Source: a virus
DNA length: 64,000 bases
IMG/VR virus record: IMGVR_UViG_3300029305_006221
Span: 64,001 to 128,000 of that record
Direction: 5' to 3' (one strand)
Positions 30,621-59,279 of this stretch are shown here, one piece after another (position 1 is the first letter of the stretch; each line of letters opens with the position of its first letter). The position numbers were made by a program, and so were the translations under genes. The notes beneath the pieces were generated by a model, which had not been told where the DNA came from, made no database searches, and was given only the letters and a program-made list of their open reading frames with translations.

Positions 30621-30642
30621 AAGAGAGAAAAGGAGAGATAAT

Positions 30643-35680: not shown

Positions 35681-36010
35681 ATGGTAATTCAAAAAAACCT
35701 GAACTTTGTTTCAAATACTACAATTCCTGTTTTATCAAAGACATTTATTAATGCTTCAGGAGACGTATTATCTTTAGAGATAAAGGGTAATGGAGTTATT
35801 TACATTGATGGGCGCCTATAGGATGACTCAGATTGGTTCTCAATTGCGGGAATCAATTTAAGTGATTTTTCAGTGTCTAAAGATGGATTCACTAAACCTG
35901 GACTTTATGAGATAGGCGTCATTGGCATTAGACAACTTCGCGCGCGTGTTGAGGCTGTTCAAGACAATGTCTCTGTTCATGGTTAGATAATCAGCTCGGA
36001 GGAAACTTGA
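35681..36010 (+). CDS. hypothetical tail protein, 109 aa with 2 TAG
   Basis: GGAGGA RBS, then ATG 35681. Ends at TGA 36008-36010. Confidence 0.45.
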
Positions 36011-36011
36011 T

Positions 36012-36896
36012 ATGGCGATAGATACGATTGCAAGAGGCTTAGCCACTTCTATTTATGGGCCAGACGGCAGAATTGCCGCAAATAAAATGCCTAAAGTTGA
36101 AATTACAGATACTACTGGATTCACTTCGATAGGTAAGTTAACAGATCCTAATTTAGTTGCTGGTAAAACCTCAGAGGAAATTTTATTAATGATGCTCTTT
36201 GGTATCGTAACGCCTGCGCTTAAGGCGCCTAGCGTGCGCCTCGTATTAAATGAAGAAATTTCTTATTTAATAGTTGGAGAAAAGAAGACTATTAATGGAG
36301 TTGTTTAGTTTGATCGAGGATCGATTGAACCAGCTTATGGCACATCTGGCAAGCGCGCAGGTCTTCCTACTTCTTATCAGGTAAATGAAAGTGCTTATTC
36401 ATCAAATGATTTATCACTTTCTTTTTCTATTGATATAATTCCCGTTCCTGGAGAGAATATTCTTTCTTACGCAGTATTTTATAACGCCGGAGAATAGCCT
36501 CTTAATAGTATTGGTTAGCCTTTTGAGGCGCCATTGCCTGCAGGAATGGTATCTGGATCAATTTCTGTTGATGGGGTTTATTAGCTTTATTCGGCCGACC
36601 ACGTCCCAATGAGTTTTAATTGGTTTGAAGATACTGATGGAGAAGGATATCAATCGATTTTCTTATCTGAAGGAAGCGGAACAAAGCAAGCTTTCGCGCT
36701 CGATTCAAGTGTTTCTGTTATAGGCTTTAAAGCTATTGATCCTATTACGAAAGAATGGATTTGGTTAGGCGGAGAAGGACCAGAAGTTTCACTATCTTTC
36801 TTTGATATTGCAGAAGACAAAGAAAAAAATCGTAAAATCTATACTCATAACTATTTTACAGTTGGAGAAAGAGAATTACGAATTTATGTAGCTTAA
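36012..36896 (+). CDS. hypothetical tail protein, 294 aa with 4 TAG
   Basis: Joins ORF-track ORFs 36012..36308 and 36609..36896 in frame 0. Confidence 0.5.
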
Positions 36897-36907
36897 GGAG
36901 GTAAAAT

Positions 36908-37453
36908 ATGGCTAGATATAAAGGTATTTTTAAGGCTGCCGCAAACTACGAGCCATAGATTGCTGCACCTTTTGATGCAAGAATGTTAGTTGATGCGAAA
37001 GCAGATCTAACAGATAGGAGCATTTGGCAATAGAGTAATGGAGATGTCTGGGTTTACTCAGGCATGATCGTAGCTGTTGCGAATGATGAAAATAGCGAAA
37101 ATAATGGCATTTATATGCTATTAAATAGCGCGCGCTTTGAAGAAGAGTCATCTTGGCGAAAGATGTCAGATGATAGTAGTATTGCCGCGCTTGATGCTGC
37201 TATTAAAGAATTACAAGAACAGATTAAGAATATTGAAATCTCTGGAGAAGGTAGTGTATCTATTGAAGTAGATACAATGGATGATCTTCCTAAAATTGGA
37301 GATAGCGATACTACTTATTATGTTAAAGAAAACTTAAGTATCCAAAGATGGAACGAAGCTACACAATCTTATTTAGCTTTTGGCGGATAGGGTAGCGCGC
37401 CTGAATTGGATATAAAAATTATTTACGGAGGAAATGCAAATGTCACAGATTAA
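36908..37453 (+). CDS. hypothetical tail protein, 181 aa with 3 TAG
   Basis: AAGGAGG RBS, then ATG 36908. Includes ORF-track ORF 37064..37390. Ends at TAA 37451-37453. Confidence 0.45.
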
Positions 37454-38786
37454 TACTAGAATTGTATTAAGAAATGATACCAAGGCGAATTGGGAAGCAG
37501 TCAAAGATACTGCTACTCTTAAACCTGGTGAGTTTGGTGTTGAGACCGATACTGGTTTATTCAAAATCGGTAAAGAAAAGTCTGAAGGGGTTCTTTGCAC
37601 TTGGGCAGAACTTGAGTATGCAAATGATATTCCTGAGATTGATCTTTCTGACGTAACCAACGATGTTCAAGTCGTTGAAGGCACTATTGACAATCTTGTT
37701 GCTGGCAAGGTTGTTGGAGATATGGGTATTGTTAAAACTCCTCTTTATGAAGGAGCTACAACTTATACCTACACAGCTTATGTATGGAATGGCGAAGCAT
37801 GGGCGGCAATGGATGGAAACTACAATGCAGCTAATGTTTATTTTGACCAAGATTTAACTTATACTACTTCCGTAGGTGCGCTTAAACTTGCAAGCGGAAA
37901 GAACTCTGATACTTATGCGGCTAAGGGTAAATCTTTAGAGGAAGTTATTAGACGTATTATGGCAGAGACTATTGCGCCTACAATTACCCAGGCTTCCTAT
38001 GGAATGAGCGCAAGCTACACTGCAGATAATGGCACTGAGGTTGGTAGTAAAATCACTGCTCTTAAGTGGGATGGTACATTTACAGATGGTAGCTATAGCT
38101 ATGGTAGATCTTCTACTGCAGATGGTGGCGCTGGCAATGTTTCTACAACAAAAGGTGCAGGATGTACTGCAACTTATTCAATGGAATGTGATCAAGCTGG
38201 AACTACATCAACCCCTGCTACAGTAGATGGAACTTGGACTCTTACAACTCCTTTCTAGATAACTTCTACTTCAGAAGCTACTGTTGGTAAGATTACAACT
38301 CATTGTGTTATTAGTGATGCTAAATATTGGCCTATTAATAATATAAATGAAGTTGTCGATGGTAAGCTTAGTGGCAAGACTGTTGATAAGGAAAGCACTG
38401 TTAAAGTTACTGGATTCCGTGGATGGTTCTGCGGCTGGAAGAATGGAACAAACGCACTTGCTGATCCTACTGCTATTACAAGTGATCAAGTTCGTGCACT
38501 TACTAAGAAAAATGGCTCTTGGGAGAGCTCAATGAATGTATCACAAATGAAACAGATGTTCTTCTTGGCGCCTGCTGGTAAGGGTTATAAACCTGCTATT
38601 AAAGACTCTAAGACAGACGCGCCTCAGACAGTTGAAGGACCTGTTACAGTATATGTAAAGGGTGCTAATAACTATGTAGCTGCAGGTGATGAGACCACTA
38701 ATGGCGGTATGGCTTATGATATGTGGTATGTAAACAACGCAGCTGCTGCTTCTGGTAGCGCTACGCTTAATATAACAAAGGCTTAA
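37434..38786 (+). CDS. tail fibre protein with a HylP/tail-fibre-type N-terminal domain, 450 aa with 1 TAG
   Basis: N-terminus MSQINTRIVLRNDTKANWEAVKDTATLKPGEFGVETDTGLFKIGKE. ORF-track ORFs 37434..38258 and 38532..38786 are joined in frame 0. Confidence 0.6.
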
Positions 38787-38799
38787 GGAGGAATAAATA

Positions 38800-41691
38800 A
38801 TGTCGATTAGAGATGATTTTTTTGCGGCTCAAGCTAAGGCTTCTTTATGGGACGTAGCCGTCTCGATAAAGAGAGGTAATCCGCTTCCTCTTGATGCGAA
38901 TTCGGTATTCAAGGCTTACGGAACAGTAGGCGGAGCAGATTACGCTGGTTCATTACTTGAATATGTAACCGATAATCCTGTTGCTTATCCTGGTCAGATT
39001 TGCGCAGTTGTAGGAGCAGACGCTACTACTATTTATTACTTAGACCAAAATCTTGCTATTCAACCCGTTGGAATTATTCCTACTGGCGATGGTAAATCTA
39101 TTGATGTTGCTGAGGGTGGAGAAATTTCTCTTCATGGTTTTGGCGATTTAACCGCTTCTCACGTTGGATACCTTCCTCGTGTAAAGAAAGTTGTAGATGT
39201 AGCTGCGGCTGAGGATGTTGAAGAGGTATTTCATCTTGAAATTGAATGGGCGCCTGTTTCCGCGATCGTTGAAGGTGATGGTAATAGCGTAACTGAGGTT
39301 GCTGCTGGTTGCCCTTGCATTAACGTTGAAGATAAGGCAGAGGAAGATTTTGAAGGTCATAAATATGAAATTTCTCTTAACCTTTCTGCCGAAGAAGGCA
39401 ATATCCTTAAGGAAAAAGAAGACGGACTTTATGCAGAGGTTATTATTCCTGATGTCCCTGAGTATGCTGTAAAAGCAGATGAAAGAGCTGAAGGCGCGAC
39501 TGAAACTACTTATCACTTAACAAAAGACGGTACCAATGTTGATGTTGCAATTGTAGTTCCTGATGCTTATAATGATGAGGCGCTTGCAGGACGCGTTGGC
39601 GCACTTGAAGGAAAAGTAGATACTGGCGATAAGAAAGTTAGTGTTTATGTTGCTGAGCAAATTGCAAATGCAGAAGTCGGTAAATTAACAAAGATTATTA
39701 TTGATTCTGTTACTGAAGATGGCAAGGTAGTAATTGATGGAGAGACAACTGACCCTATTGAGCATATTATCTATATGCTTAAGGTTGAATCTGCTACTGG
39801 CGACATGTATAAGGAATACATGGTTATTGGCGGAGAGCTTGTTCAAACTGGCGACACAACTACAGATTTAAGCGGATATGTTACTAAGACTACTAAGATT
39901 AATGGTAAGGCGCTTGAAAGTGATATTACACTTGAATCTGATGATATTAACGTTTCAGAAAATGCTGAAACTCCAAATGCATTTGAAGGCTAGACACTTA
40001 CACAAGCTCTTAATTCTCTTTCTGAGACTGCCAATACGGCAAATAGCAAAACTGCTGAAGATATTATTGTTGAGACTGAGTCTAATGGAACTATAAAAGA
40101 TGCGATTGTTGCATTAAAAAATTCTACTATTAATGGAAAAACATTTAACGATAATCTTGGTATCGGCTCCATTTGGAGTGAAGATTAGACTAATGGAGTA
40201 ATTCTTTACGGAACGGATATTACAGTTGACGAAAACAATGATACTCGTACTATTGCAAAAGCTATCGAAGATGCAGAAGGAGCCGTTGAAACTTTAGCAA
40301 CAAATGTTGAAAGAGACTATGCCAAGAAAGCGACTACTCTGGCTGGTTATGGTATAACAGATGCTTATACTAAAACTGAAATTGATAATAAGATCGGTAC
40401 TCCTGGAGTTCCTGAGCTTAAAGATGGTGAAGGCAATACTACTCAAGAAGCTGTAGATGGTACAGGTATCTTTGCTTCTGCGTACTCTAAAGCAGAAGTT
40501 AATGCATTGCTTGATGCAGTAAGCGGAGGATCTTCTGAAACTGCCGCATCTGTTAAGAGACAATTGGATGAATATAAGACATCTAATAATGAACGCGTTT
40601 CGAATATTGAAAACCAGGTTGGTCATGATGTAAATGGTGAAACTCCTGCAACAGGACTCTTCCTTGAAGTAGATCAGGCGCGCGCTCAGGCTGATACAGC
40701 GCTTAATAATGCGCAAGCTGCTAACCAAGCAGTAACTCAACTTGCTGAAGGTCAGGTTGCAACAAATAAGTCCAATATTGAAAATCTTCAGGCACTTGTC
40801 GGTGCAATTGGAGACGGAAAAGATACCACTCTCGCAGGAAAGATTGGCGCCCTTGAGGCACACGATCAAGCTCATACTGCAGAATTTAATCTTCTTTCTG
40901 GTAAGGTAAATCAAAATAGTGAGGACATTGGTAAGAGAGCTCTTGCAGATAATGTTTATACAAAGGGTGAAGTTGATGCTAAACTTGTTCCTCTTGCACT
41001 TGCGGCAAATGTATATAGCAAGACTGACGCAGATGATAAGTTCCTTGCAAAAGCTGACGCGTATGATGATACTGCAGTTAGAGGTTTAATTACAGCTGAA
41101 GAAAACCGTGCTAAGGGAGAAGAAAATAAGCTTCAATTAGCAATAGATCATATCTATAAGGCTGGAAATGAAGAGCTTGGAACTCAAGATGAAGGTCTTC
41201 TTGCAACTGCTATTGACGATATTAAACAAAATAGTGCAAATATTACTACGCTTGTTGGCGCCGATCAAGCAAAATCAGTAAGAACAATTGCTCAAGAAGA
41301 GATTGCTTCTCAACTTGCAACAGCACCTGAAGCATTCGATACTCTACTTGAAATGGCGGAATGGCTCGGCACTCATAGCACAGATGCAGTTAATATGGAT
41401 AACCGTATTAAGGCTAATGAGGATAAGCTCGTTGGTATCGGCGGAGAAGATTAGCCTGCTACCGTACTCGATGCCATTAGAGCTGCTGAGTACACTCTTC
41501 CCGTAGCAACAGCTGAAGCACTTGGTGGTATCAAGTCTGCGGCTGATGTTGATGGCGTAGCAGTTGTTAATACGGTTTATGTAGCTAACGACGGTAAGGC
41601 AGATGTTAAGGCAATTAGTACTGATATTCTTGTTAACGGCGAGGCTGAACTCGTCCTTAATGGTGGTAATGCAGCAGGCGCAACAGCTTGA
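38800..41691 (+). CDS. long fibrous tail fibre protein, 963 aa with 3 TAG. Extended coiled-coil and Ala-rich regions
   Basis: AAGGAGG RBS, then ATG 38800. ORF-track ORFs 38800..39993 and 40507..41454 are joined in frame 1. Ends at TGA 41689-41691. Confidence 0.6.
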
Positions 41692-41794
41692 TTGTAAACA
41701 CCTAATATAAACAATAACAGGCGCCTTTGGGCAACCCTGGGCGCCTGATAACCATAAATTAAAAAATTTTAATTACGAAAAGGAGAAAATTATT

Positions 41795-43693
41795 ATGGCA
41801 TTTGCTGATAATATTCTTAATGTAAGACTTCAACTTAAGTATGACTCTCTTGAAAATTGGGCAAGAGAAAATCCCCTTCTTAAAGCCGGTGAGGTTGCGA
41901 TTGCATATCTTCCTCCTAAGGGCAATGGAGAAGCTCCTGCTGCTACTTCTGAAGCAGTATTAATGAAGGTTGGTCCTGGTAACTTTAACAGTCTTCCTTT
42001 CACAAGCGCTCTTGCAGCTGATGTTTATGGATGGGCTAAGGAGAACGAACTTAAGTTCTCTAAAGCAGGCACAGGTAATGTTGTTTCTGGCATCGAATGG
42101 GACGCTACTCTTAATGGAAACAAGGGTGGTATTAAATTTACGACTGCTTCTGTTGCAACCTCTGAAGGATTAGAAGAAGTTCAAAATGATATCGCTGCAA
42201 TTGAAAAAGATATTTCTGATAATCGCGCAGCTTGGGCAAAGGATGATAATACAACTTATACTTTTGCTAAATCTGCAGATGGCAAGGGAATTACAATTAC
42301 TCCTTCTGAAGGTAATGGTTCTACAATTTCTTTTGCTTTCTTAACGCAAGCAGAAATTGAAGCTCTTAATTATCTTGTAAAAGCAGATATTACAACCGGT
42401 AGTGCTAATGGTACAATCGCTGTTGAAGGTGCTGATGTTGCAGTTAAGGGTCTCCAGGACGCTGCTTATACCACAGTATCTGCGCTTAATGCAACAGCTA
42501 AGGGATATGCTGATGCAGTTGAAGCTAAGATTCCTACCGAACTTGGCGTTATGTCTGTTGCTGAAGGTAATGATACAATCACTATTGGTGGTACAGCTGC
42601 TAATCCCACTATTGTGGTAACAGCGAATAAGTTTGATGCATACGGTGCAGCAGCGGCAGTTCAAACTGGTGTTGAAAATGGAACAGTTAAAGCTAAAGTT
42701 GCAGAAACGGCAGATAAAGTTGCCAACTCTTTAACTGTAGGTAGTAAAACTTATAATGGTTCTGAAGCAATTTCAATTACTGCAGCAGACCTTGGCTTAT
42801 CCAATGCTCTTCACTTTGTTGGCACATCTTATCCTTCAAACCCTGTCGCAGGTGATGTAGTTCTTGATGGTAATAAGGAATATGTTTATGATGGCTCTAA
42901 GTGGATTGAACTTGGAGATGAAAGTAGTCATGCTTTGAATACCATCACTATCACTGGAACAGATGGTCTTGAAGGCGGAGGTAATCTTACTGAAAATAGA
43001 ACTTTAAAAATTGCGGATAGCGGTGTAACTACTGTTAAGATTGCAAATGATGCAGTAACCGCTGATAAACTCGCCGATGCTATTAATACAGATATCGCCA
43101 AAGGTGTAACTGCTCATGGCTGGGGTAACCATGCCAATGCAGGTTATGCTAAGACTGCTGATCTTGGTGATCTTGCAACTCTTGATACAATTACTTCTGA
43201 AAAAGTAACTGATTTTGAAAATGCCGTCAACAACACTAACATAGGCGGAACTAATGAGGGTGTAACTGTTGCTAGCGGCCTTAACAATGCTCTTGACAGA
43301 GTTACTACTCTTGAAAGCAACAAGGTTGATAAGACAACTACTGTAAACGGTAAGGCACTTTCTGAGAGCATAAATATTTATGCAGAAAATATTCATGTTG
43401 AGTCTGATTCAGTTATGGATAGAGGCGTTACAGTTTATGACTCTCTTGAGGCAATTGCTAAAACAACGATTAATGGTGAAACAATTCTTGAAAACTTTAG
43501 TGCTGGTGATTATGCTACATCTAGACAGTTTGTTCTTAATGGTGAAACTCTTAAGATGTCTGGAACAGATACAACAACTCTTAATGCGGCAATTACTGCT
43601 CGTCAGACAGAGGCTCAGGTTAATGCTCTTATCGAGGCAGCACTTGGCGCAATTACAACAATTAACTGTGGTTCTTCTACAGAGGTTATATAA
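41795..43693 (+). CDS. tail fibre protein with a HylP-type N-terminal domain, 632 aa with no TAG
   Basis: Intact ORF. N-terminus MAFADNILNVRLQLKYDSLENWARENPLLKAGEVAIAY. Confidence 0.6.
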   Translation: MAFADNILNVRLQLKYDSLENWARENPLLKAGEVAIAYLPPKGNGEAPAATSEAVLMKVGPGNFNSLPFTSALAADVYGWAKENELKFSKAGTGNVVSGIEWDATLNGNKGGIKFTTASVATSEGLEEVQNDIAAIEKDISDNRAAWAKDDNTTYTFAKSADGKGITITPSEGNGSTISFAFLTQAEIEALNYLVKADITTGSANGTIAVEGADVAVKGLQDAAYTTVSALNATAKGYADAVEAKIPTELGVMSVAEGNDTITIGGTAANPTIVVTANKFDAYGAAAAVQTGVENGTVKAKVAETADKVANSLTVGSKTYNGSEAISITAADLGLSNALHFVGTSYPSNPVAGDVVLDGNKEYVYDGSKWIELGDESSHALNTITITGTDGLEGGGNLTENRTLKIADSGVTTVKIANDAVTADKLADAINTDIAKGVTAHGWGNHANAGYAKTADLGDLATLDTITSEKVTDFENAVNNTNIGGTNEGVTVASGLNNALDRVTTLESNKVDKTTTVNGKALSESINIYAENIHVESDSVMDRGVTVYDSLEAIAKTTINGETILENFSAGDYATSRQFVLNGETLKMSGTDTTTLNAAITARQTEAQVNALIEAALGAITTINCGSSTEVI

Positions 43694-43706
43694 TTAAATA
43701 CACATA

Positions 43707-43736
43707 AGGGTGGGTAATTCTACCCACCCTCTTTTA
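43707..43736 (+). terminator. rho-independent terminator
   Basis: AGGGTGGGTA-attc-TACCCACCCT then CTTTT. Confidence 0.7.
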
Positions 43737-43800
43737 AAAGCCACTTGAGTTTGAAAGTGATAACTCAAGAATTTAATACTTGAAAAGGAGATAGTATATT

Positions 43801-44589
43801 ATGGCTACAACTGAAGCATTAAAATTTCGTATTGTGCATAAGCACGATACCGAAGAGAATTGGCTTAAAGCCACAAACTTTATCCCTAAGCAGGGAGAAA
43901 TAATTATTTATGATATTGACGCGAATTACAATTATGAGCGTTTTAAAATAGGTGATGGCACTAGTAATGTAAATGCATTGCCTTTTGCTAATAATGGTTC
44001 TAGTGAAACTACAGAAATATATGGAGACGCTCCAAATCTTCCTCTTTTAGATGAGCAAACTTATGACCAAGCTTGTATTGTTCCATTAAAAATTAGGGTT
44101 AAAAACAATACTATTAATTATAGCGGTACTGGAAATCTTCCTTATTACCAGTATTTTGATAGAACTTTAGAAGTACCCGCATACACTATGGAAGGAACCT
44201 TTTACTCAGAGACCTTTACCGTTAGTAATTATTCTGGAGGAATGGAAGATACGACTACTTATACTGTTAGTATAACTTTTAATAGAGGAAATTGGACGAT
44301 TAATAATGATTCTAATGGTATAATTACCTTTTTAATGGATGAAGAATTAACAACGGTAGGCGCAGGTAGGGCGCTAAGAGAAACATCCGATAGATTTAGT
44401 GTTACGACAGCATGGGATGGATCAAATGATGTTCCAGCTATTAAGGTAGGTAATACAGTTCTTACCGAAACAAAACTTAGTCAATTAATTGCGTACATTG
44501 ATGGTTTAGCAAGCGGTGATCCTGCAGTAGTTGAACCTATTGCGCAGAACTATCTTGACACGACAGTAGCAGAGGAGGCGACTTGGTAA
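43801..44589 (+). CDS. tail fibre or receptor-binding protein with a HylP-type N-terminal domain, 262 aa with no TAG
   Basis: Intact ORF. N-terminus MATTEALKFRIVHKHDTEENWLKATNFIPKQGEIIIYDID. Confidence 0.55.
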   Translation: MATTEALKFRIVHKHDTEENWLKATNFIPKQGEIIIYDIDANYNYERFKIGDGTSNVNALPFANNGSSETTEIYGDAPNLPLLDEQTYDQACIVPLKIRVKNNTINYSGTGNLPYYQYFDRTLEVPAYTMEGTFYSETFTVSNYSGGMEDTTTYTVSITFNRGNWTINNDSNGIITFLMDEELTTVGAGRALRETSDRFSVTTAWDGSNDVPAIKVGNTVLTETKLSQLIAYIDGLASGDPAVVEPIAQNYLDTTVAEEATW

Positions 44590-45689
44590 TGGGATTTAAT
44601 GAAAAAATGACTACATTAGCAGATGAAGTGAGAACGCTAAGTGGCGCTACTGAGGAAAAGAGTCTTGATGATTTAATATCTGATACTACTGCGGCTAATA
44701 GTGAGGTTGATGCGCAGACCGAGTTAATTGAACAGATTATGACTGCGCTTGATGGTAAGGCTGGCGGCTCAGGAGGAACAGTTCTTCCTACTCTTGATAA
44801 TCCTGCAAGTGCTACAGACATTCTTAGTGGAAAAGAAGCTATTGATGGTGAAGGTAATAAGATTACTGGTTCAATTGCTACTAAAACATCAAGTGATTTA
44901 ACTGCAAGCGGTTCTACGGTTACGGTTCCCGCAGGATATTATGCAAGTAACGCAAGTAAGTCTGTAGCTACTGTTACTCAAGCAACTCCTACAGTGTCGG
45001 TTAGCGCCAGTGGTTTAATTACAGCAAGTGCCACACAGAGCGCGGGATATGTAGCTTCAGGAACTAAGAGTGGAACTAAACAATTGACCACTAAAACAGC
45101 GACCACTTATACTCCTACTACTTCGAATCAAACAATATCAAGTGGAATTTATTTAACTGGCACTCAGACTATTAAAGGCGATGCAAATCTTAAAGCTGAA
45201 AATATTGCTTCTGGAGTTAGCATTTTTGGAGTAGCTGGAACTCATAGCGGAAGTGAAAATCTTGATACTGAATTAACTGAACAAGAAAGTTTAATTTCAG
45301 AGTTAAGCACTATCTTAGATAGTAAAGCAAGCGGAGGCTCTGGTGGAGGGAGCATAGAGACTTGCACTGTAACTATAAGCAGCAATTCATCATTTAATGG
45401 TATTTGGATTATATTTTATAATTCTTTAGAAAATAATTCCATTATAGGAAAAAAAAGTGACTTCCTTCTTAATTCTACATCTACAATAACTGTTAATGCG
45501 CTACAAGGCTCTGTAATTACCATAGTTGCTTTCGACATAGGGGTTTTTAACGACTATGGTATGAGTAATTGTAGTGTTTCCAATGGAGGCAATTTGTTAC
45601 ATGTGATGCAAGATTCTGTAAATATTGTAAATGTCGGTCTTGTAATCCAACTACCAAATGAAAACGATTGTACTATAACCTGTAGTTAA
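44583..45689 (+). CDS. receptor-binding-protein paralogue A, 368 aa with no TAG. Contains GGSGG linkers
   Basis: Intact ORF. The module ATQATPTVSVSASGLITASATQSAGYVASGTKSGTKQL...TIKGDANL is paralogous to the 46096..47151 gene. Confidence 0.5.
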   Translation: MVMGFNEKMTTLADEVRTLSGATEEKSLDDLISDTTAANSEVDAQTELIEQIMTALDGKAGGSGGTVLPTLDNPASATDILSGKEAIDGEGNKITGSIATKTSSDLTASGSTVTVPAGYYASNASKSVATVTQATPTVSVSASGLITASATQSAGYVASGTKSGTKQLTTKTATTYTPTTSNQTISSGIYLTGTQTIKGDANLKAENIASGVSIFGVAGTHSGSENLDTELTEQESLISELSTILDSKASGGSGGGSIETCTVTISSNSSFNGIWIIFYNSLENNSIIGKKSDFLLNSTSTITVNALQGSVITIVAFDIGVFNDYGMSNCSVSNGGNLLHVMQDSVNIVNVGLVIQLPNENDCTITCS

Positions 45690-45707
45690 TAAGGAGGTAA
45701 ATAAATA

Positions 45708-46076
45708 ATGTCAAATAAAACAAGATTACAAACAAATAACACCAACCTCCAAGCACTTATAGATAAGGCAAACGCACTTCCTGATGCTGGCGGAGGTTCT
45801 GGCGGAGGAGGAGACTTGGAAACTTGTACTCTTACATTATCCAGTATGGGCGTACCCACGGGCGACGAAATAGTTTATTATATAGATGACACTTTAACGC
45901 TTCAACAATCTAGTTTTCCCGCCTTTAGACAGAGTAAATCTGTAATCGTTATGAAAAATAGTATAATTTTTGTTGAATATGCGTCTGAGATCTCTGGAAG
46001 CATCGCTTCAATTGGTACTGGTACAAGTCATCAAGGATTTTTTATTTCGGGTGATGCAACTTTATCGAAAGGATAA
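45708..46076 (+). CDS. receptor-binding-protein paralogue B (short), 122 aa with no TAG
   Basis: N-terminus MSNKTRLQTNNTNLQALIDKANALPDAGGGSGGGG resembles the N-terminus of 46096..47151. Confidence 0.5.
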   Translation: MSNKTRLQTNNTNLQALIDKANALPDAGGGSGGGGDLETCTLTLSSMGVPTGDEIVYYIDDTLTLQQSSFPAFRQSKSVIVMKNSIIFVEYASEISGSIASIGTGTSHQGFFISGDATLSKG

Positions 46077-46095
46077 TGTAAAGGGGGATTAACAA

Positions 46096-47151
46096 ATGTC
46101 AAATTATAATACGCAATTACAAGCAAACAATTCCTCTTTGGAGGAAATTATAACACAGCTTAATGAGTTGCCCGATGTGGGAGGTACCGACCCTATTCTT
46201 CAAGATAAAACAGTAACTCCTTCAACGAGTCAGCAAACGGTAACTGCAGATAGCGGATATGATGGATTAGATACGGTAACTGTTAATGCAATGCCTACGG
46301 CTACACAGGCAACACCGAGTATTACTGTTAATTCAAGTGGACTGATTACTGCAACTGCAACTCAGACTGCTGGTTATGTGGCGGCAGGTACTAAATCTGC
46401 AACTAAACAGTTAGCATTTCAAGCTGCGCAAACCATTATCCCTGGTACAACTAATCAGACAATTGCATCTGGACAGTATTTAACTGGGGTGCAAACTATT
46501 AAAGGCGATGCTAATTTAGTAGCGAGCAATATCGTAAGTGGCAAGAGTATTTTTGGAGTGGTTGGTACTGCTAATAGTGGAGGTGGAAGTAGTGGCGGAG
46601 ATACAAGTGCAGAAGATGGACTAGTAACTAGAACTTTGACGACTTATACAAATGATAGAGTAACAACTATTGGAAATTATGCGTTTTATTCTTGCTCAAG
46701 CCTTACAAGCGTAAGTTTTCCACAATGTACAACTATTGGAGACTATGCGTTTCGATATTGCTCAAGCCTTACAACTGTAAATTTTCCAGCGGTTACAACT
46801 ATTGGTGCTTCTGCCTTTGTAGGTTGTTTAAAACTTGCGGGAGTGAGCTTTCCAGCAGTTACAGCTATTAACCTCGCTGCATTCCAAAACTGTTCAAACC
46901 TTACGACTGTAAGTTTTCCAAAAATTACAAATATTAGTTCTTACGCATTCCTACGTTGTTCAAAACTTGCTTCTATTTATCTTGCTGCATCTACAGTATG
47001 TTTTTTAGAAGGCTCAGACGCTTTTTCACAAACTAGTATCTGGTCAAACAAAGGCTCAATCTTCGTTCCGGCCTCCTTACTTGCTTCTTATAAAGCTGCA
47101 ACTAACTGGGTTTTCTTTTCAAATAGAATTTTTTCATATAACTTCACATAA
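46096..47151 (+). CDS. receptor-binding-protein paralogue C with a C-terminal BspA-type leucine-rich repeat domain, 351 aa with no TAG
   Basis: Intact ORF. Five or more tandem LRR units of the type TIG(N/D)YAF..CS.LT.V.FP. Shared module with 44583..45689. Confidence 0.55.
   Translation: MSNYNTQLQANNSSLEEIITQLNELPDVGGTDPILQDKTVTPSTSQQTVTADSGYDGLDTVTVNAMPTATQATPSITVNSSGLITATATQTAGYVAAGTKSATKQLAFQAAQTIIPGTTNQTIASGQYLTGVQTIKGDANLVASNIVSGKSIFGVVGTANSGGGSSGGDTSAEDGLVTRTLTTYTNDRVTTIGNYAFYSCSSLTSVSFPQCTTIGDYAFRYCSSLTTVNFPAVTTIGASAFVGCLKLAGVSFPAVTAINLAAFQNCSNLTTVSFPKITNISSYAFLRCSKLASIYLAASTVCFLEGSDAFSQTSIWSNKGSIFVPASLLASYKAATNWVFFSNRIFSYNFT
46680..46960 (+). repeat. tandem ~69-nt coding repeats encoding the BspA-like LRR units
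   Basis: Reiterated ...tgctcaagccttacaa(g/c)(c/t)gtaa(g/a)ttttcca.. units. Confidence 0.6.
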
Positions 47152-47183
47152 TATTTAAAAGAGATAAAAGGAGATAAAAGGAA

Positions 47184-48164
47184 ATGAAATTACAAATTTT
47201 AGTACCTCAGTATAAAGAAACGGAAGATATTATTAAACCATTACTTGATAGTATTGAGGTTCAACAAAATGTAAACCTAAAAGAAGATGTTGGTGTCATT
47301 ATAGTAAATGATGGCACTGATGTCCATCTATCAGAAGACTTCTTTAAGAGATATTCTTTCCCAATTGAGTATCATCTCAATGAACATAAAGGTGTTTCTG
47401 CAACTCGTAATGCTTGTCTTGATAAAGCAACTGCAGATTATGTAATGTTCTGTGATGCAGATGATATGTTCTACAATGCTTGCGGCTTATACATCATCTT
47501 CCGTGAAATAGAGAATGGTGGCTTTGATAGTTTAGTATCTGCATTCATTGAAGAGTCTCATATTCCAGATACTAAAGAACCGCTTTATATCAATCACGAT
47601 ATGGATTCTACTTTTGTGCATGGAAAAGTGCATCGTAGACAATACCTTATTGATAATAATATTCGTTGGAATGATAAGTTGACGATTCACGAGGATAGTT
47701 ATTTTAATTGTCTATGTCAGAGACTTGCAAAAGAGTTGAAGTATTCTCAGACTTCATTCTATTTGTGGCGTTGGCGCGATGCTTCGGTTTGCCGCCATGA
47801 TCCAAAGTATATTTTAAAAACCTATAACAATATGCTTGATAGTAATGATGCTCTTGTAACTCAATTCTTAAATCGCAAGAGAAAAGAGGATGCTCAATTC
47901 TATGTAGTAGGCATGATTTATGATGCATATTTCACAATGAATAAAGACGAGTGGCTAAATCAAGAGAATAAAAATTATCGTTATGCAACGGAGAGACGCT
48001 TTAAGGAGTATTGGCTAAAGTATAAAAAGTTGCATGATGAAATTCCTCAAGATATAAAAGCTCAGATTATTATGGGAATTAAGAATCGGATGTATGCTGA
48101 AGGTATGGTACTTGAAACGCTTACTTTTAACGAGTGGATTAAGCAAGTTGAAGCAATGGTGTAA
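47184..48164 (+). CDS. family-2 (GT-A fold) glycosyltransferase, 326 aa with no TAG
   Basis: Motifs VGVIIVNDGTD, CDADD (DxD) and ATRNACL. AAAGGAG RBS. Confidence 0.7.
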   Translation: MKLQILVPQYKETEDIIKPLLDSIEVQQNVNLKEDVGVIIVNDGTDVHLSEDFFKRYSFPIEYHLNEHKGVSATRNACLDKATADYVMFCDADDMFYNACGLYIIFREIENGGFDSLVSAFIEESHIPDTKEPLYINHDMDSTFVHGKVHRRQYLIDNNIRWNDKLTIHEDSYFNCLCQRLAKELKYSQTSFYLWRWRDASVCRHDPKYILKTYNNMLDSNDALVTQFLNRKRKEDAQFYVVGMIYDAYFTMNKDEWLNQENKNYRYATERRFKEYWLKYKKLHDEIPQDIKAQIIMGIKNRMYAEGMVLETLTFNEWIKQVEAMV

Positions 48165-48205
48165 AAACAAGATTTAACAGAACCCCAATTTTTTACAATG
48201 GAGGG

Positions 48206-48520
48206 ATGATAATGACTACAACTATTATATTATTGATAATAACGTCCATTTTTAACATAATTGATTATTGCCAAACAGCATACGCCATAGGACTTTTTGG
48301 ACTTGGCGTTGAGCTCAATCCAATAGGGCGCCTTATGTTTGCAGCCGATTGTGGATGGCTAAAATTAATTATTATGCCAATTTTATTGTTAGCTCTTGGC
48401 CTTATTATTAAAGCTGATAAGAGGCTGTCTTGGGAGGCTTGGCTTGTGACAATATTGTATCTTATAGTTATTATAAATAATTTTTATATGTTAATACGAG
48501 CGGGAGTATTTTTCTTCTAA
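48206..48520 (+). CDS. small polytopic membrane protein, 104 aa with 3-4 predicted TM helices. GtrA/flippase-like or holin-like
   Basis: Hydrophobic segments IILLIITSIFNII, IIMPILLLALGLII and LVTILYLIVIINNFYML. Immediately downstream of the GT2 gene. Confidence 0.45.
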   Translation: MIMTTTIILLIITSIFNIIDYCQTAYAIGLFGLGVELNPIGRLMFAADCGWLKLIIMPILLLALGLIIKADKRLSWEAWLVTILYLIVIINNFYMLIRAGVFFF

Positions 48521-48550
48521 AATAAAAATTCTATATTGGAGGATTAGATT

Positions 48551-48670
48551 ATGATGTGTTTTACCTGTCCTATATGTATCGCTTGTGCGATTATTACAGC
48601 AGTTTCTACTATGACTATGGGCGCCTTATGTGCGTGCTATAAGCATTTGAAGAAGAAAAACAAAGTATAA
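48551..48670 (+). CDS. small Cys-rich single-pass membrane peptide, 39 aa
   Basis: GGAGGA RBS. Reads MMCFTCPICIACAIITAVSTMTMGALCACYKHLKKKNKV. Followed by a terminator. Confidence 0.35.
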   Translation: MMCFTCPICIACAIITAVSTMTMGALCACYKHLKKKNKV

Positions 48671-48687
48671 TCAAGCTATGTTTCAGA

Positions 48688-48722
48688 TAGCAGGCCTTAG
48701 CCGCCTGCTATCTATTTTATTT
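48688..48722 (+). terminator. rho-independent terminator
   Basis: TAGCAGGC-cttagcc-GCCTGCTA then TCTATTTTATTTAATTT. Confidence 0.6.
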
Positions 48723-48787: not shown

Positions 48788-49282
48788 ATGGTCGAATTAT
48801 TAACAACCTATGGTGTGACTGGCATCATTGTTATTTTACTTATAGCTATTCCATCCATAGTTAATTTTATCTCTTGGTGTAAAAAGCTTTGGAAACAAAG
48901 ATAGGCTTTTGCACAAGAGAATGAACAAAGGGGATATCAGGAAGGTGTTGAAGCTGAAGAAGAGCAATTTGAAAAAAGTAAACTTGAAGAAAGAGTTAAA
49001 AAAATGGAATCTGATATCGTTGATTTAAAGGTAATTGTTTCTCAATAGAAAGAATTAATTGAGCAATTGACAGAGTCAGATATGCTTAATACTAAAGCTT
49101 GGATAAAAGAGCAACATGAAAAGTGGATTGCGCTTCAATGCATTGACAGCTAGAGTTTAGACCTGATTTTACAGCGCTATAAAATATATAATAAAGAAGG
49201 CGGCAATGGATGGGCGAAAAAAATGGTAGAAGAGATTAGTGCACTTCCTACTATTACTGTAATCCCAGTTCATAAAGACTGA
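48788..49282 (+). CDS. protein with an N-terminal TM helix followed by a coiled coil, 164 aa with 3 TAG. Holin-like or a lysis regulator
   Basis: AAAGGAGGA RBS, then ATG 48788. TM segment GVTGIIVILLIAIPSIVNFISW. Ends at TGA 49280-49282. Confidence 0.4.
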
Positions 49283-51019: not shown

Positions 51020-52888
51020 ATGAGATATTATTATAATAAAGATATTTTAAACTATATAGACTCTTTATTAATTAAAGAATAGTATGTAAGACTTACTATT
51101 TTAAATGATAAAGATATTCCTTTAAAAAGTATCTCTGGATTGGCGACAGGAGGAAGTATCAATGTTAATGCAAAATCAGTGGTTAGACGAACTGGTTCCG
51201 TTTCACTTATTTCTATTGCTAATGATCCAGATGATGCAATTGCGCACGTGACCGATATTGAGAATCTTATATCAATTAATAAAAGGGTGAAGATAGAGAT
51301 TGGTTTGCGCAATACAGATAATCAATATTTAGATTATGATTACTTTTGGTTTAATCAAGGTGTTTTTGTAATTAAAAGCGCATCGGTATCAAACAACGCT
51401 TAGAATATTTCTATTTCAGTTTCTATAAGTGATAAAATGTCGTTGCTTAATGGAGATTGCGGCGGACGCTTCACAAGTGCACTCATACACTCGCCTATTG
51501 CTGTTGAAAACGGTGATGAAGAGCCTGTTTTATTTACTACTTTAATTCATGAATTGGTAAGTGAAATGGGTGGTATACCAGAAGATAAAATAATGATAGA
51601 AGATATTGAAGATGAATTTAAAGCTGTTGTAAGATGGACTGGTTTAGGAAATATTTTTATGATTCCTATCGAAAATGATAGATATAAATTAACTTCTATT
51701 CCTCAAGAAGGAGCTTTACTGTTTAAAAACCAAGAGAATTTAGGATATAAAAAAGAAAAGTTTACTTATCCTGGAACTCTTGAATCTAAAGCTGGAGAAA
51801 CAGTAACTTCAGTATTAGACAAGATTAAAAACGCTCTAGGTAATTATGAATATTACTTTGATGAAAATGGTATATTTCATTTTAAAGAAATCAAAAACTA
51901 TTTGAATGAAGGTAGTTCTATTGACGATTTAAATGAAGCTATTAATGAAAAGTATTTAAAGAATTTATCTAATGGTAAAGTGGAATATTCTTTTGAAAAC
52001 AATGCTTTAATTACGTCTTACAATAACTCACCTCAATATACAAATATTAAAAATGATATTATTATTTGGGGAAAGGCTGAAGATAAATAGGCGCCAGTGA
52101 GATATCATTTGATTATAGATACTCCTCCAGAGGAGCGAGACTGGTTTACTATTGATGATGTAGAGATTGACTATCTTGGCAATATCAAAGCAAAAAAAGT
52201 GACTAGATATTCTGCCAATGATAAACCTGAAAATGCAATTAAAGCATCTAACTGGCAATAGCAATATTATTTAAGCATTATTGCAGATAGTATTCAAACC
52301 AATCTTGCTAAAGAGTTTAAAGAAGAGTTCCCTAAGATATTTGATATTGGCTTTAATGGCGCGACGGCAAATGGAAAAACAGGATGGAAATATACTCTTA
52401 GTTCTAGTTCTATAAAATATTTCTTAGATATGCTAGATCCTAAATCTTTAGTTGGAGACAATATGATTAAGGATATGTCTGCTGAAAAGATAGGATAGAG
52501 AAATACAGTTATAAACGATAATGCTGTAAATTGTGTTTTTGAACCTAAGTTTGATGAAGTATTGTTTATTAATGAAGATGATGCTGCTCCAGTTGGTAAA
52601 AAATATATTGTTTTAACAGACGATATTAAGAATTATGTTTCAATAGGAGTAGCTTAGGTTTCTGCTTATGAAACTGTGCGCTCGGCGCTTCATACTTATA
52701 CAAGTTATGCAAATACAGTTTCTTTATAGACAATTCCCGTTTATCACTTAAAACCAAATTCAAGAATTTACATTAAAGACGATAATAGTGATATAGATGG
52801 AGAGTTTATGATAAACTCTATTACCATTCCTCTTGATGCAAGTGGTATGATGAATATTAGTGCTTCTAAAGCAGATGAACGAATATAA
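51020..52888 (+). CDS. hypothetical structural protein, 622 aa with about 8 TAG
   Basis: AAGGAGGG RBS, then ATG 51020. Frame 2 joins ORF-track ORFs 51140 and 51437. Ends at TAA 52886-52888. Confidence 0.5.
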
Positions 52889-54179: not shown

Positions 54180-54200
54180 ATAAAAAGCTTATAGGATAAC

Positions 54201-54973
54201 ATGAAGGGATCATTCTTCTTTTCCTATTCACTGGATGGGGAAGAAACGGCTGGGGCAATGGAGGTTCCGAAGGAGGAAGTGGATACGTTCTTAATCCCTA
54301 CTTCTATGGATTTGGCTCTAGTTCGGGCGCTTGTGCAACTAAAGACGACGTTCGCGCGGCTGTTGATCAGCAAACCCTTATTTCTAAACTTGATAACCAA
54401 ACCTACGGTCTCGCTGATAGCACTTATTCATTAAGTAATGCTATCACATCTGGATTCCATGGAGTAGATAATGCAATCTGTACTCTTGGATACCAAAATC
54501 AGGCAGGCTTTACCGCACTTGGTAATCAACTTGCACAATGCTGCTGCGACACTCGTGCCGCTATCGCAGACGTAAAAACTCAGGGTGTAATTAACACTAA
54601 TGCCCTATCTAGCCAGTTAGCGGCTTGCTGCTGTGACATTGAGAAGGCTAATATGGAAAACCGTTTTGCTGCTCAAACCTATAATTGCAACACGCTTCAG
54701 GCTATTGACAAACTTGGTGATAGAATCATTGACTTCATGACGCAAGATAAGATCGCTTCTCTTACTGCGGAGAATCAATCTCTTAAGTTTGCGGCATCTC
54801 AAGCAAATCAGAATGCATTTATCACTGCTAACCAAGAGGCTCAAACAGCAGAACTTATTCGTAGACTTGGCAGAGATTGCCCAATTCCTGCGTATGTAGT
54901 TCCAAATCCTAATTGCTGCTATACCCCTCAGGTTCAGATCGCATCTTCTAACTGCGGCTGCGGTTGCTTCTAA
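54201..54973 (+). CDS. Cys-rich, Gly-rich secreted-like protein (CCCD repeats, C-terminal NCGCGCF), about 258 aa. The start codon and the body are in different frames
   Basis: ATG 54201 with an AGGAT RBS is in frame 0. The clearly coding frame is frame 2, stop-free from 54200 to TAA 54971-54973, and includes ORF-track ORF 54653..54973. That frame has no ATG, GTG or TTG before 54653. The two frames meet around the T4 run at 54218-54221. Confidence 0.4.
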
Positions 54974-58797: not shown

Positions 58798-59279
58798 TAG
58801 CTAATCCTTTCTGCATATTGATTTGGACTAGCAAGTTTTACTCCAAGTATATCATCAAAGTGAGATTCCATATCTGGAATATAGCGTCCAAATTTTACAA
58901 TAATATTTGAAAAATGTTTTAATTGATTTAATTGATCTTCAATCTCATCATCATAATATCCTGTGTAAATAACAACATCATCTTCTATTAAATAACATTC
59001 TCTAAAAACAAAGAGAAAGTCATATAAGTCTTCAAAGGTATCAAAAGGCTCCAATCCTTGAAATACTATTGCATGTGTAAACGGAGTCTTTTGATATAGC
59101 TCAATAATAGAGTCTATTGAATAATCAAGAGTTGGCATATTTGCCAATGTACTATTTTGACACACTGGCATGCCGCATTCTCGATCACATTTAAAACCTT
59201 TGCAATAAGGAGTTTCTATTGTTAAAGAAGGAATTTTATAATTAACGAAATCTTCTGTTATAATTCCTTTGACTTTCAT
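58797..59279 (-). CDS. nrdG: anaerobic ribonucleotide reductase activating protein (small radical-SAM NrdG type), 160 aa
   Basis: Cys cluster YCKGFKCDRECGMPVC. Overlaps the nrdD stop. Typical nrdD-nrdG arrangement. Confidence 0.65.
   Translation of the reverse strand: MKVKGIITEDFVNYKIPSLTIETPYCKGFKCDRECGMPVCQNSTLANMPTLDYSIDSIIELYQKTPFTHAIVFQGLEPFDTFEDLYDFLFVFRECYLIEDDVVIYTGYYDDEIEDQLNQLKHFSNIIVKFGRYIPDMESHFDDILGVKLASPNQYAERIS

Follow-up and report, generated by a model that had tools for sequence, protein, structure and literature searches.

The window, i.e. the whole 64-kb stretch of DNA that was analysed (64,000 nt), belongs to a large stop-codon-recoded gut/rumen phage in which TAG is read as glutamine. 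To begin with, a glycosyltransferase (GT) gene, a gene for a small membrane protein with a DUF5658 domain and a reading frame for a 39-aa Cys-rich peptide with a transmembrane (TM) helix were all found where the original prediction had placed them, between a receptor-binding-protein cassette and a terminator, and inside the tail module, with an LRR_5 protein upstream and a tail protein downstream (Table 1). These genes had also been predicted to be TAG-free, which was confirmed for the entire cassette block: none of its 62 Gln-type codons is TAG, against 178 of the 416 (43%) in the flanking late genes, a depletion with P ~1e-15 for the block and P = 4e-4 for the GT, DUF5658 and peptide genes only. 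Moreover, the G+C content ranged from 0.36 to 0.40 in the block and from 0.29 to 0.34 in the neighbouring late genes. Among the four fibre-type genes at its upstream end, the second encodes a protein with weak matches to Mtd_N and phrog_19976 (tail), while the third shares an S/T-rich N-terminal domain with the leucine-rich-repeat (LRR) protein that precedes the GT.

Table 1. Features of the cassette and its surroundings, with positions in the window
Feature	Position	Strand	Basis or remarks
Cassette	41795-48670	+
TAG-free tail-fibre/receptor-binding-type gene, first of four	41795-43693	+	ORF; upstream part of the cassette
TAG-free tail-fibre/receptor-binding-type gene, second of four	43801-44589	+	ORF; upstream part of the cassette
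TAG-free tail-fibre/receptor-binding-type gene, third of four	44583-45689	+	ORF; upstream part of the cassette
TAG-free tail-fibre/receptor-binding-type gene, fourth of four	45708-46076	+	ORF; upstream part of the cassette
BspA-type LRR tail-fibre/receptor-binding protein, 351 aa	46096-47151	+	PF13306 LRR_5, E 1.2e-27
Soluble family-2 (GT-A) glycosyltransferase, 326 aa	47184-48164	+	PF00535 Glycos_transf_2
DUF5658 membrane protein, three hydrophobic segments	48212-48520 (102 aa); 48206-48520 (104 aa)	+	PF18902
39-aa single-helix peptide, basic tail	48551-48670	+	6 Cys; one hydrophobic helix, then KHLKKKNKV
Intrinsic-terminator-like hairpin closing the cassette	48685-48713	+	11-bp stem (6 GC pairs), 7-nt loop, T-rich tail
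Neighbouring late gene outside the cassette, 164 aa	48789-49282	+	N-terminal membrane helix and coiled coil
Tail protein downstream of the cassette	51020-52888		phrog_1887

Beyond the hairpin, the gene for the 164-aa neighbour contains 3 or 4 in-frame TAG codons, according to two counts, and its product has one N-terminal TM segment, with matches to two families of unknown function (phrog_4105 and phrog_4257). Proteins of a comparable build precede endolysins in three related loci (L083, L085 and L072), which is relevant to the question of lysis. The window also carries a dCTP-deaminase/dUTPase-like gene, as annotated in L005. No tRNA (suppressor) gene was found in the 64-kb window or in seven related loci; in the contig of L039, TAG may be read as Glu. 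A blastn search with the 46.0-49.3 kb segment gave no matches among 50,697 phage records. Furthermore, none of the PADLOC defence models matched the GT, the DUF5658 protein, the peptide, their fused form or the 164-aa neighbour.

The glycosyltransferase and its association with tail-fibre genes

The assignment of the first accessory gene to a cytoplasmic GT2 enzyme, proposed earlier from two motifs, was upheld by a match to PF00535 (E 5.5e-14; 52.9 bits for a cut-off of 23.3), and both motifs were located in the translation, VIIVNDGT at residues 38-45 and CDADD at residues 90-94. The two marks of the GT-A family are present, i.e. the DxD motif for metal and nucleotide-sugar binding (D91-A-D93-D94) and the ED motif of the catalytic base (E170-D171). 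In an alignment of 85 sequences, D93 was invariant, D43, D91, D94 and D171 were conserved in at least 90% and E170 in at least 80%. The protein is soluble, since hydropathy did not exceed 0.95 over any 19-residue window and no TM segment appeared. A structural model from a shallow alignment (84-94% identity) reached a pLDDT of only 67 and was replaced, together with its Foldseek ranking, by a confident model from a deep alignment, in which the predicted structure has a GT-A Rossmann-like fold, with a catalytic subdomain (residues ~1-205) followed by a five-helix subdomain that forms a soluble bundle (residues ~209-324). The isoelectric point is acidic (5.5; family median 5.4). Remote matches, 24-35% identical, were all that tblastn returned, several of them annotated as glycosyltransferases (e.g. 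in Bacillus phage FADO), and the NCBIfam models gave sub-threshold generic GT2 matches only. A SunS-type glycocin S-glycosyltransferase with the Cys peptide as its substrate was also considered and rejected, as the combination of a SunS-like fold and a leader-bearing Cys peptide was not found.

The GT family comprised 292 clusters at 50% identity, from ruminant, horse and human gut samples. An LRR-like reading frame lay immediately upstream of the GT on the same strand in 84 out of 117 loci, or 69 out of 95 dereplicated lineages, with a median gap of 30 nt and overlapping genes in 11 loci, the BspA-type LRR being the family most often found directly upstream. Moreover, the GT and the LRR protein were the sole window genes widely common to otherwise unrelated loci (92 and 80 loci, respectively). 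Across ~100 lineages the GT shares an operon with fibre or head genes, as is expected of a virion-glycosylating phage enzyme, which is expressed with the structural genes. In particular, a GT8-GT fusion was found in a head-gene operon, between a Phage_Mu_F head protein and a scaffold-like gene (L134/L135), and a GT-GT4 fusion with a second paralogue lay 3′ of a Ser-rich fibre gene (L137). Overall, relatives of the GT were fused to GT8, GT4 or GT2 domains, and a second GT2 gene was present near the GT in ~10 phage loci; these multi-GT sets imply the building of a glycan.

In TAG-recoded relatives, GT homologues carry in-frame TAG codons at conserved Gln positions (Q4, Q27 and Q179 in L081; Q28 in L070 and L088), from which it follows that they are late proteins there. 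Genes with in-frame TAG are untranslatable under the standard code of the host (bioRxiv 10.1101/2021.08.26.457843), and thus these homologues are not conversion genes expressed from a prophage in those relatives. Finally, the slot right after the GT holds true holins and endolysins in relatives.

The DUF5658 protein and its detached helix

The second accessory gene had been described as encoding a 104-aa protein with three to four TM helices. Three hydrophobic segments were found, and the ATG at 48212, which has GGAGG 8 nt upstream and is also the start used in public gene calls (P0121), is the likelier start, giving 102 aa. The original prediction had proposed an HMM check of this protein for the GtrA family or a holin family, and neither was matched; instead, it belongs to DUF5658 (27.5 bits against PF18902, with a cut-off of 25.2), as do 43 out of 43 relatives (best E 5e-13), 15 of which also match phrog_7761, a family of unknown function. 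The GtrA family (PF04138) was not matched by the window protein even at E ≤ 1, or by any of the 43 relatives at E ≤ 0.01. Seven residues of the DUF5658 protein are invariant (D20, T24, G32, E36, N38, P39 and K53). A literature search for DUF5658 or PF18902 returned zero papers.

The 39-aa reading frame is a real gene by the evidence of its homologues, because similar peptides follow diverged DUF5658 genes or are fused to them. Such a peptide lies 3′ of DUF5658 in five contexts, including L013, L095, L132 and L138, whose DUF5658 genes are only 44-63% identical, and is fused to DUF5658 in at least five protein clusters (L016/P0124, P0126, P0146, P0152 and P0163). The richness in Cys is not conserved, the L138 peptide having one. 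As judged from these sequences, DUF5658 and the peptide are one four-helix protein with a basic tail that is encoded in two pieces, the peptide being its detached fourth helix; the topology predicted from sequence and hydropathy places both the KADKR loop and the KHLKKK tail in the cytoplasm, in keeping with the positive-inside rule.

The distribution of DUF5658 was patchy and of an accessory kind (46 protein clusters). It lay among tail-fibre genes in all eight contexts, with the GT just upstream in five of them, and occurred without the GT in L013, L094 and L132. In turn, only 4 out of 100 dereplicated GT lineages had DUF5658, or 5 counting L138, so that an obligate pairing of the GT with the small membrane protein was not supported. 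The DUF5658 gene of L138 contains two in-frame TAG codons and is consequently translated late.

Possible roles and comparison with known systems

The inheritance of the GT with receptor-binding cassettes across ~100 lineages suggests that it probably modifies either the fibres or the receptor. The reading we favour, held with somewhat less than even confidence, is that the GT is expressed late from the fibre operon to glycosylate virion proteins, and that it lies beside an independent split membrane protein. The locus would be a slot for cargo at the 3′ end of a mobile operon for receptor-binding proteins, holding two independent accessory modules rather than one GT/flippase pair; their independence is argued by the presence of DUF5658 in only four to five of ~100 GT lineages and by its occurrence without the GT in three loci. 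The first module is a soluble GT2 of the inverting type, in which a catalytic and a helical subdomain are arranged as in TarS, RmlT and TarP. Its gene is probably transcribed together with the last tail-fibre gene, which is usually of the BspA-type LRR family, and is often coupled to it in translation as well; the two would move together between phages that are otherwise unrelated and infect Gram-positive bacteria of gut and rumen. The enzyme would act late in the cytoplasm, with a nucleotide sugar and a metal bound by the DxD motif, and its targets would be virion proteins of the phage itself, here presumably the fibres, while the additional GT8, GT4 or GT2 domains of relatives would extend the glycan. 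The second module would be a single four-helix inner-membrane protein, in which DUF5658 supplies three helices and the second piece, of 30-50 aa, supplies one helix and a basic tail on the cytoplasmic side, and would represent an occasional add-on in the same slot, acting as a late membrane protein. Both the acceptor of the GT and the function of the second module are inferred. The placement behind the last tail gene may only mark a permissive insertion slot, and the GT is TAG-free in the window, so that recoding sets no constraint on timing here. Likewise, the GT being just upstream in five of the eight DUF5658 contexts leaves room for a functional connection between the two modules.

Modification of the receptor is the other way in which joint inheritance of the fibre gene and the GT would be explained, and it is possible, if doubtful, that the enzyme acts as TarP and TarS do. 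In that case, the soluble GT would add a sugar to a wall glycopolymer of the host on the cytoplasmic face, before export; the altered polymer (teichoic-acid-like or a secondary wall polysaccharide) would be the receptor of the adjacent LRR fibre, and infected cells, lysogens or debris would cease to adsorb the same phage type. The catalytic-plus-helical layout matches that described for TarS/TarP/RmlT-type enzymes (PMC11697029), TarP is encoded by a prophage (PMC9650247), and some relatives are temperate, with a serine integrase 3 kb downstream in L003. Gram-positive hosts are indicated by the endolysins of relatives, with LysM, PG_binding_1, CHAP and Amidase_2 domains, and by TerL relatives that infect Geobacillus, Enterococcus and Bacillus, and the window GT, being TAG-free, is translatable under the standard code. 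However, of the teichoic-acid-glycosylating variant contained in the original prediction, only the fold-level similarity to TarS and TarP stood, and this similarity does not identify the acceptor, since phage GT-A enzymes that glycosylate DNA also have TarP as their top PDB match (bioRxiv 10.1101/2023.12.21.572611). The oligomerisation domain present in TarS and RmlT is missing from the GT, which is also acidic, whereas the acceptor would be polyanionic; its tight coupling to late fibre genes leaves no room for a promoter of its own, and the homologues with in-frame TAG are not expressible from a prophage. Moreover, the relatives in head operons and the GT8/GT4 fusions suit glycan building on phage proteins better than the decoration of a wall with single sugars. 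That the GT instead glycosylates phage DNA (hydroxymethyl-pyrimidine hypermodification) is highly improbable, despite the R...DxD...ED motif set and the TarP match shared with the newly described phage enzymes, the ParB-methyltransferase and SAM-synthetase-like genes adjoining a fused relative (L136) and the dCTP-deaminase/dUTPase-like gene in the window. The GT gene belongs to the tail-fibre operon in ~100 lineages, rather than to a set of genes for replication or nucleotide metabolism, no 5mYOX or thymidylate-synthase-type partner was present nearby, and the acidic charge argues against this acceptor as well. The original prediction had put forward a gtrA/gtrB-type module, which, as a three-component conversion of the Gtr or CsbB/GtcA type, would require the GT to charge undecaprenyl phosphate, the small membrane protein to flip it and a periplasmic-face enzyme to transfer the sugar. 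It is very unlikely, also in a softer variant in which the soluble GT is held at the membrane, or helped there, by DUF5658, even if the GT directly precedes DUF5658 in five of the eight contexts and conserved polar residues in the DUF5658 helices could bind a polar head group. None of the 43 DUF5658 members matched GtrA, and the GT has no membrane helix, hence no C-terminal TM anchor of the GtrB type, nor are GtrB, ArnC or DPMS its closest structural relatives. No large polytopic reading frame for a GtrC-type GT-C transferase was found in 41.7-53.6 kb, where the neighbours are fibre and tail proteins, and ~95% of GT lineages lack DUF5658, which also occurs without the GT. The strict Gtr model was therefore rejected, as its defining features were tested and found absent.

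For the DUF5658-peptide unit, we rank a holin-type lysis function above superinfection exclusion, and the latter above a role as GT helper. A holin or holin-associated lysis-timing protein, encoded by the tail-fibre genes and away from the endolysin, is a tentative proposal that concerns the membrane unit only and is compatible with either explanation of the GT; it resembles the second part of an alternative already included in the original prediction, in which the GT acts on fibres and the membrane proteins are the holin, and which the gene context fits at least as well. In phage T4, the holin gene t sits beside the tail-fibre genes 37-38. With 102 + 39 aa, or 131-150 aa in the fused form, the unit is small; it has 3+1 membrane helices and a short, strongly basic cytoplasmic C-terminus (KHLKKKNKV), in line with the size, the one or more TM segments and the charged C-terminus expected of a holin, and the L138 copy, with its in-frame TAG codons, points to late translation. 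Furthermore, it takes the position of classical holins in relatives, with Phage_holin_4_1 53 nt after the GT (L087), a Holin_SPP1-like gene 138 nt after the GT (L080) and Phage_holin_5_2 present in L021. In the 64-kb window, which is about half of the genome, no recognisable holin or endolysin appeared among the genes tested: BLAST of all reading frames from 93 related loci against all window reading frames revealed no lysin homologue, and no lysin domain was detected by Pfam in nine neighbouring proteins. Two large proteins outside the domain scan were read by eye, one of 3168 aa as a tape-measure protein and one of 1657 aa as an S74-type fibre. However, no Pfam or PHROGs holin model matched the protein or any of its 43 relatives, the next genes were further tail-fibre genes and not an endolysin in all eight contexts, and among phages that are close relatives the unit is both rare and dispensable. 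In Pfam, DUF5658 has the status of a domain of unknown function to which no role in phages or as a holin is assigned. Its invariant D/T/E-x-NP/K/N constellation, which lies within the helices, would be unusual in a pore former and is more suggestive of a site for binding or catalysis. It is rather unlikely that the unit serves superinfection exclusion or immunity at the membrane, closing DNA entry or the receptor to phages with the neighbouring fibre type. The llp gene of T5 and the cor genes sit near receptor-binding genes, and the same rationale would apply here: DUF5658 is always found among tail-fibre genes, its distribution is patchy, and the window unit has its own ribosome-binding sites, no TAG and a terminator behind it. 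Against exclusion stand the lack of any PADLOC match, the lack of an evident promoter upstream and the need of the L138 copy for TAG read-through, hence its late expression, while the exclusion proteins of lytic phages are typically early.

Receptor-binding cassettes determine the host range of phages, and the locus may have implications beyond this genome. A broader and more speculative proposal is that of a widespread phage GT2 family which is tied to BspA-type LRR receptor-binding genes by glycosylating fibres or other virion proteins, with DUF5658 and its micro-peptide as a new two-piece membrane effector, either a holin or an exclusion protein, riding the same cassette. If this holds, it would be the first system for virion glycosylation in phages other than actinobacteriophages, and gut Firmicutes phages would have a general means of tuning or shielding the proteins with which they bind receptors. 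A GT acting on fibres would bear on their stability, on immune and mucus interactions and on the engineering of gut phages, while one acting on the receptor would bear on exclusion, on a serotype-like conversion of rumen and gut Clostridia and on the interpretation of phage-host networks. Furthermore, the split or fused DUF5658 unit would offer the first functional handle on this Pfam domain, and the 39-aa peptide is a clear example of so short a reading frame being a real gene.

Among known systems, TarS and TarP of S. aureus and RmlT of L. monocytogenes (CAZy GT2) have the catalytic plus helical subdomain architecture in common with the phage GT, at an identity of only 16-17%. The phage enzyme lacks their oligomerisation or turret domain, ending at residue 326 after the helical subdomain, while TarS and RmlT run more than 220 residues further; it is encoded in a late tail-fibre operon and not in a wall-biosynthesis or lysogeny-module context, and, unlike theirs, its homologues bear recoded stop codons. 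The virion-glycosylation GTs of mycobacteriophages (Che8 gp110, Corndog gp38 and Myrna) are phage-encoded, often several per genome, and decorate their own structural proteins in the cytoplasm; by analogy with their multi-GT sets, to which the sets and fusions found here are comparable, a mechanism of this type is favoured for the present GT. They were absent from its best 50 BFVD matches, their hosts belong to a different phylum and their genes lie in a separate arm, whereas this GT is tied to receptor-binding genes. As in the GtrA/GtrB/GtrC and CsbB/GtcA systems, a phage-borne GT2 gene is followed by a small polytopic membrane protein, and in those systems modification of a surface polymer is tied to receptor specificity; however, the membrane protein here belongs to DUF5658 and not to GtrA, the GT is unanchored and resembles GtrB poorly in structure, a GT-C transferase is missing and the pairing is not conserved. 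With phage holins (Phage_holin_4_1, Holin_SPP1, Hol44 and the T4 holin T), the DUF5658 unit shares the small size, the late membrane character, the basic cytoplasmic C-terminus and the slot occupied in relatives, but it differs in having no HMM match and no adjacent endolysin, and its two-gene split and invariant polar residues are atypical. Finally, compared with DUF5658 (PF18902) and phrog_7761 at large, the phage subfamily found here adds a detachable fourth helix.

Fibre cassette in a recoded phage genome

All the elements listed in the original prediction, namely a glycosyltransferase (GT), a small membrane protein, a 39-aa ORF and a terminator, were present in the window, and the tail protein encoded further downstream places the cassette within the tail module. 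The second of them, described as a 104-aa protein with three or four transmembrane helices, was indeed a membrane protein, but had three hydrophobic segments and more likely comprises 102 aa.

Coordinates of the features in the window and in related loci (L) with their protein clusters (P)
Feature	Locus	Coordinates	Strand	Remarks
Tape-measure-like protein, 3168 aa	Window	21085-30588	+	Putative, by eye; 69 in-frame TAGs
1657-aa protein	Window	30622-35592	+	Putative, by eye; after tape-measure-like ORF; C-terminal Peptidase_S74-type intramolecular-chaperone region
GT, 326 aa	Window	47184-48164		PF00535, E 5.5e-14; motifs VIIVNDGT, CDADD
Membrane protein, 102 aa	Window	48212 (likelier start)		Three hydrophobic segments; start from Shine-Dalgarno spacing and public gene calls
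Peptide ORF, 39 aa	Window	48551-48670		One hydrophobic helix, then KHLKKKNKV tail
Strong terminator hairpin	Window	48685-48713		3' of peptide ORF
Late protein, 164 aa	Window	48789-49282	+	N-terminal membrane helix and coiled coil; phrog_4105, phrog_4257 (no assigned function)
Tail protein	Window	51020-52888		phrog_1887; downstream of cassette
GT8-GT fusion P0188	L134/L135	6310-7983		Between Phage_Mu_F head protein and scaffold-like gene
GT8 fusion P0233	L136	4170-5843		Just upstream of terminase and portal genes
GT-GT4 fusion P0182; second paralogue	L137	8001-10208; 10205-11179		3' of Ser-rich repeat fibre gene
Acidic protein	L001; L014; L138; L132	10984-11187; 6978-7211; 1253-1423; 244-441		Also in about 20 other lineages

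When TAG was read through, the coverage of the window by ORFs of at least 100 aa rose from 50 to 81 kb, yielding the 3168-aa ORF and the 1657-aa ORF, the latter with 38 in-frame TAGs. Three of the seven in-frame TAGs of the large terminase aligned with glutamines invariant in three homologues, so TAG is Gln in this phage. Homologous terminases at 42-45% identity belonged to Geobacillus virus E3, Enterococcus phages H1 and EF1, and Phass-1, a recoded phage of the human gut. The ribosome-binding sites were of the GGAGG type, and the window was near-identical to a stretch of a 135,988-bp JGI metagenome contig; the phage is therefore a large one of siphovirus type, with a Gram-positive host that is Clostridia-like. 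Despite the heavy recoding, tRNA genes, including suppressor tRNAs, were absent from the 64-kb window, and a suppressor tRNA, if phage-encoded, has to come from the half of the ~136-kb genome outside the window.

The TAG-free state noted originally went far beyond chance, as TAG made up 0 of 62 Gln-type codons in the block 41795-48670, which spans the fibre, GT and membrane-protein genes, versus 43% in the flanking late genes (P ~1e-15). This block also had a higher GC content than its neighbours and used more CAG, and thus looks like a compositional island swapped with standard-code phages. More broadly, within the recoded late region the fibre cassette from 36000 to 48670 (GC 0.36-0.41) contained few in-frame TAGs or none, and four ORFs of the head region (10887-14598) were likewise TAG-free. 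This suggests either that such stretches were recently exchanged with standard-code phages or that some late genes are under selection against TAG.

Elsewhere in the window, a 1029-aa ORF resembling anaerobic ribonucleotide reductases (59276-62362, minus strand), with C-terminal CPVCG and RIVGFY motifs of the glycyl-radical type, reads, judging by sequence, as split by a LAGLIDADG intein (GMIDGDGTIDG). A 257-aa protein (54200-54973, plus strand) with a hydrophobic Gly-rich N-terminal start, repeated CCCD motifs and the C-terminal stretch NCCYTPQVQIASSNCGCGCF matched phrog_16490 (E 1e-45; no assigned function), with a relative in L089.

Fold and neighbours of the glycosyltransferase

The family-2 motifs reported originally were confirmed in the translation of the GT, which matched PF00535 and had no hydrophobic segment by hydropathy. 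Its family is very large: over 120 clusters of public proteins shared 84-94% identity with it, and 292 representatives (50% identity) were obtained at E<1e-30, nearly all of them 315-335 aa long and aligned over their full length. The genome matches were all metagenome-assembled bins (yak, goat, buffalo, horse and human gut), whose inconsistent taxonomic labels, mostly Clostridia families, are a signature of phage contigs. The AlphaFold model (pLDDT 97.3, from an 85-sequence alignment) predicted a catalytic subdomain of the GT-A type and a second subdomain of five helices, a fold indicative of a soluble TarS-type GT2 and not of a Gtr-type lipid-carrier enzyme. The fold does not name the acceptor. 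GalT1, whose substrate is a glycan linked to protein, scored only slightly below the best matches, and TarP is likewise the first match of DNA-glycosylating GT-A enzymes from phages.

A total of 124 GT loci were collected, representing 100 lineages at 97% identity. In 84 of 117 loci (69 of 95 lineages), the nearest upstream ORF, in the same orientation, encoded a BspA-type leucine-rich-repeat (LRR) protein, with a median gap of 30 nt and overlapping genes in 11 loci; the remainder had other upstream ORFs, several of them large. The LRR gene and the GT were the only window genes widely common to otherwise unrelated loci. The downstream side was variable: many relatives were followed by a lysis cassette (Pfam Amidase_2, Phage_holin_5_2, Holin_SPP1-like, Phage_holin_4_1, CHAP, Phage_lysozyme2 or NlpC/P60), and a second GT2 was present in about 10 phage loci. 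In 20 of the 100 lineages, the next gene encoded an acidic protein of typically ~65 aa and ~56-77 aa overall (...HYSD.G..L.Q.ETG..Y..P.D..P..YTYTET...) with no assigned function, which also sits 5' of the membrane-protein gene in L132 and L138 and is the commoner GT neighbour of the two. In the window, the 164-aa late protein, with three or four in-frame TAGs by two counts, may be lysis-associated; proteins with this architecture were encoded directly 5' of the endolysin genes of L083, L085 and L072 and, in L137, downstream of the GTs.

Some relatives carried fused GT8 or GT4 domains, and the fibre preceding the L137 fusion had 300 aa with Ser-rich 'SDL..YLS' repeats. Moreover, GTs of recoded relatives contained in-frame TAGs at conserved Gln positions (L081, L070 and L088), so that in those phages they are made only after the code switch, i.e. 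late. These observations describe the family as a late, structural-operon enzyme, often within a multi-GT set.

Separately, the strongly TAG-recoded L039 (IMGVR_UViG_3300037400_003961, contig range 97749-110717; GT at 6001-6969) had its in-frame TAGs at conserved Glu, not Gln. Both GT TAGs, at E123 and at E170 of the HED catalytic motif, fell in columns with E in 123 of 124 homologues, and five further TAGs in the minus-strand ORFs 7201-7557 and 8265-8636 also fell in E-majority columns. For L081, L088, L070, L001 and L075, the residue aligned with TAG was Q. On these alignments, TAG could be reassigned to Glu in one phage lineage, or the genes could be inactivated.

The DUF5658 protein and its peptide

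The 102-aa protein, for which GtrA and holin families had been suggested for checking, was instead assigned to DUF5658 (PF18902), barely over threshold; all 43 relatives matched PF18902 (E-values to 5e-13) and none a GtrA or holin family in the profile search, while 15 of them matched phrog_7761 (no assigned function). This phage subfamily is small (46 protein clusters). A homologous peptide (...CA.IT..SA.ACG..C.YKHLKKK) followed DUF5658 genes of only 44-63% identity in L013, L095, L132 and L138, and was joined to the DUF5658 C-terminus in L016/P0124, P0126, P0146, P0152 and P0163. Given this conserved succession and the natural fusions, both parts are, judging from sequence, one four-helix protein, the 39-aa ORF being the DUF5658 partner. 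The predicted topology places the KADKR loop in the cytoplasm, together with the basic tail. A specific site is indicated by the invariant residues (D20, T24, G32, E36, N38, P39 and K53) and by N92-F93, which is almost invariant.

DUF5658 genes lay among tail-fibre genes in all eight contexts examined, with a GT just upstream in five and an adjoining endolysin in none; the L138 copy requires TAG read-through and is thus late. A holin would fit the position and form of the unit; an accessory exclusion protein or other effector would fit its lack of lysin linkage and of HMM matches and its rarity.

Candidate acceptors and comparison with known systems

The analogy with gtrA/gtrB-type modules broke down at each defining point: the small protein does not belong to GtrA, the GT lacks a membrane anchor, no GT-C partner is encoded nearby, and the pairing is not conserved. 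Conservation applies not to the supposed pair but to LRR fibre plus GT and to DUF5658 plus peptide. The late structural-operon location and the multi-GT sets favour glycosylation of virion proteins, for which mycobacteriophages provide a precedent. A serious rival is that the GT, in a TarP-like manner, glycosylates the wall polymer and masks the fibre's own receptor, since this would account equally well for its co-inheritance with the fibre gene. The alternative given in the original prediction, in which the GT modifies the fibres and the membrane proteins are the holin, would be compatible with all observations.

Phage GT2 enzymes and DUF membrane proteins are not new kinds as such. Three points, all readily testable, seem not to have been described before: the systematic coupling of receptor-binding genes to this large family of GTs with a TarS fold, the fusions of the family and its location inside a head operon, and the DUF5658 unit in its split or fused form.
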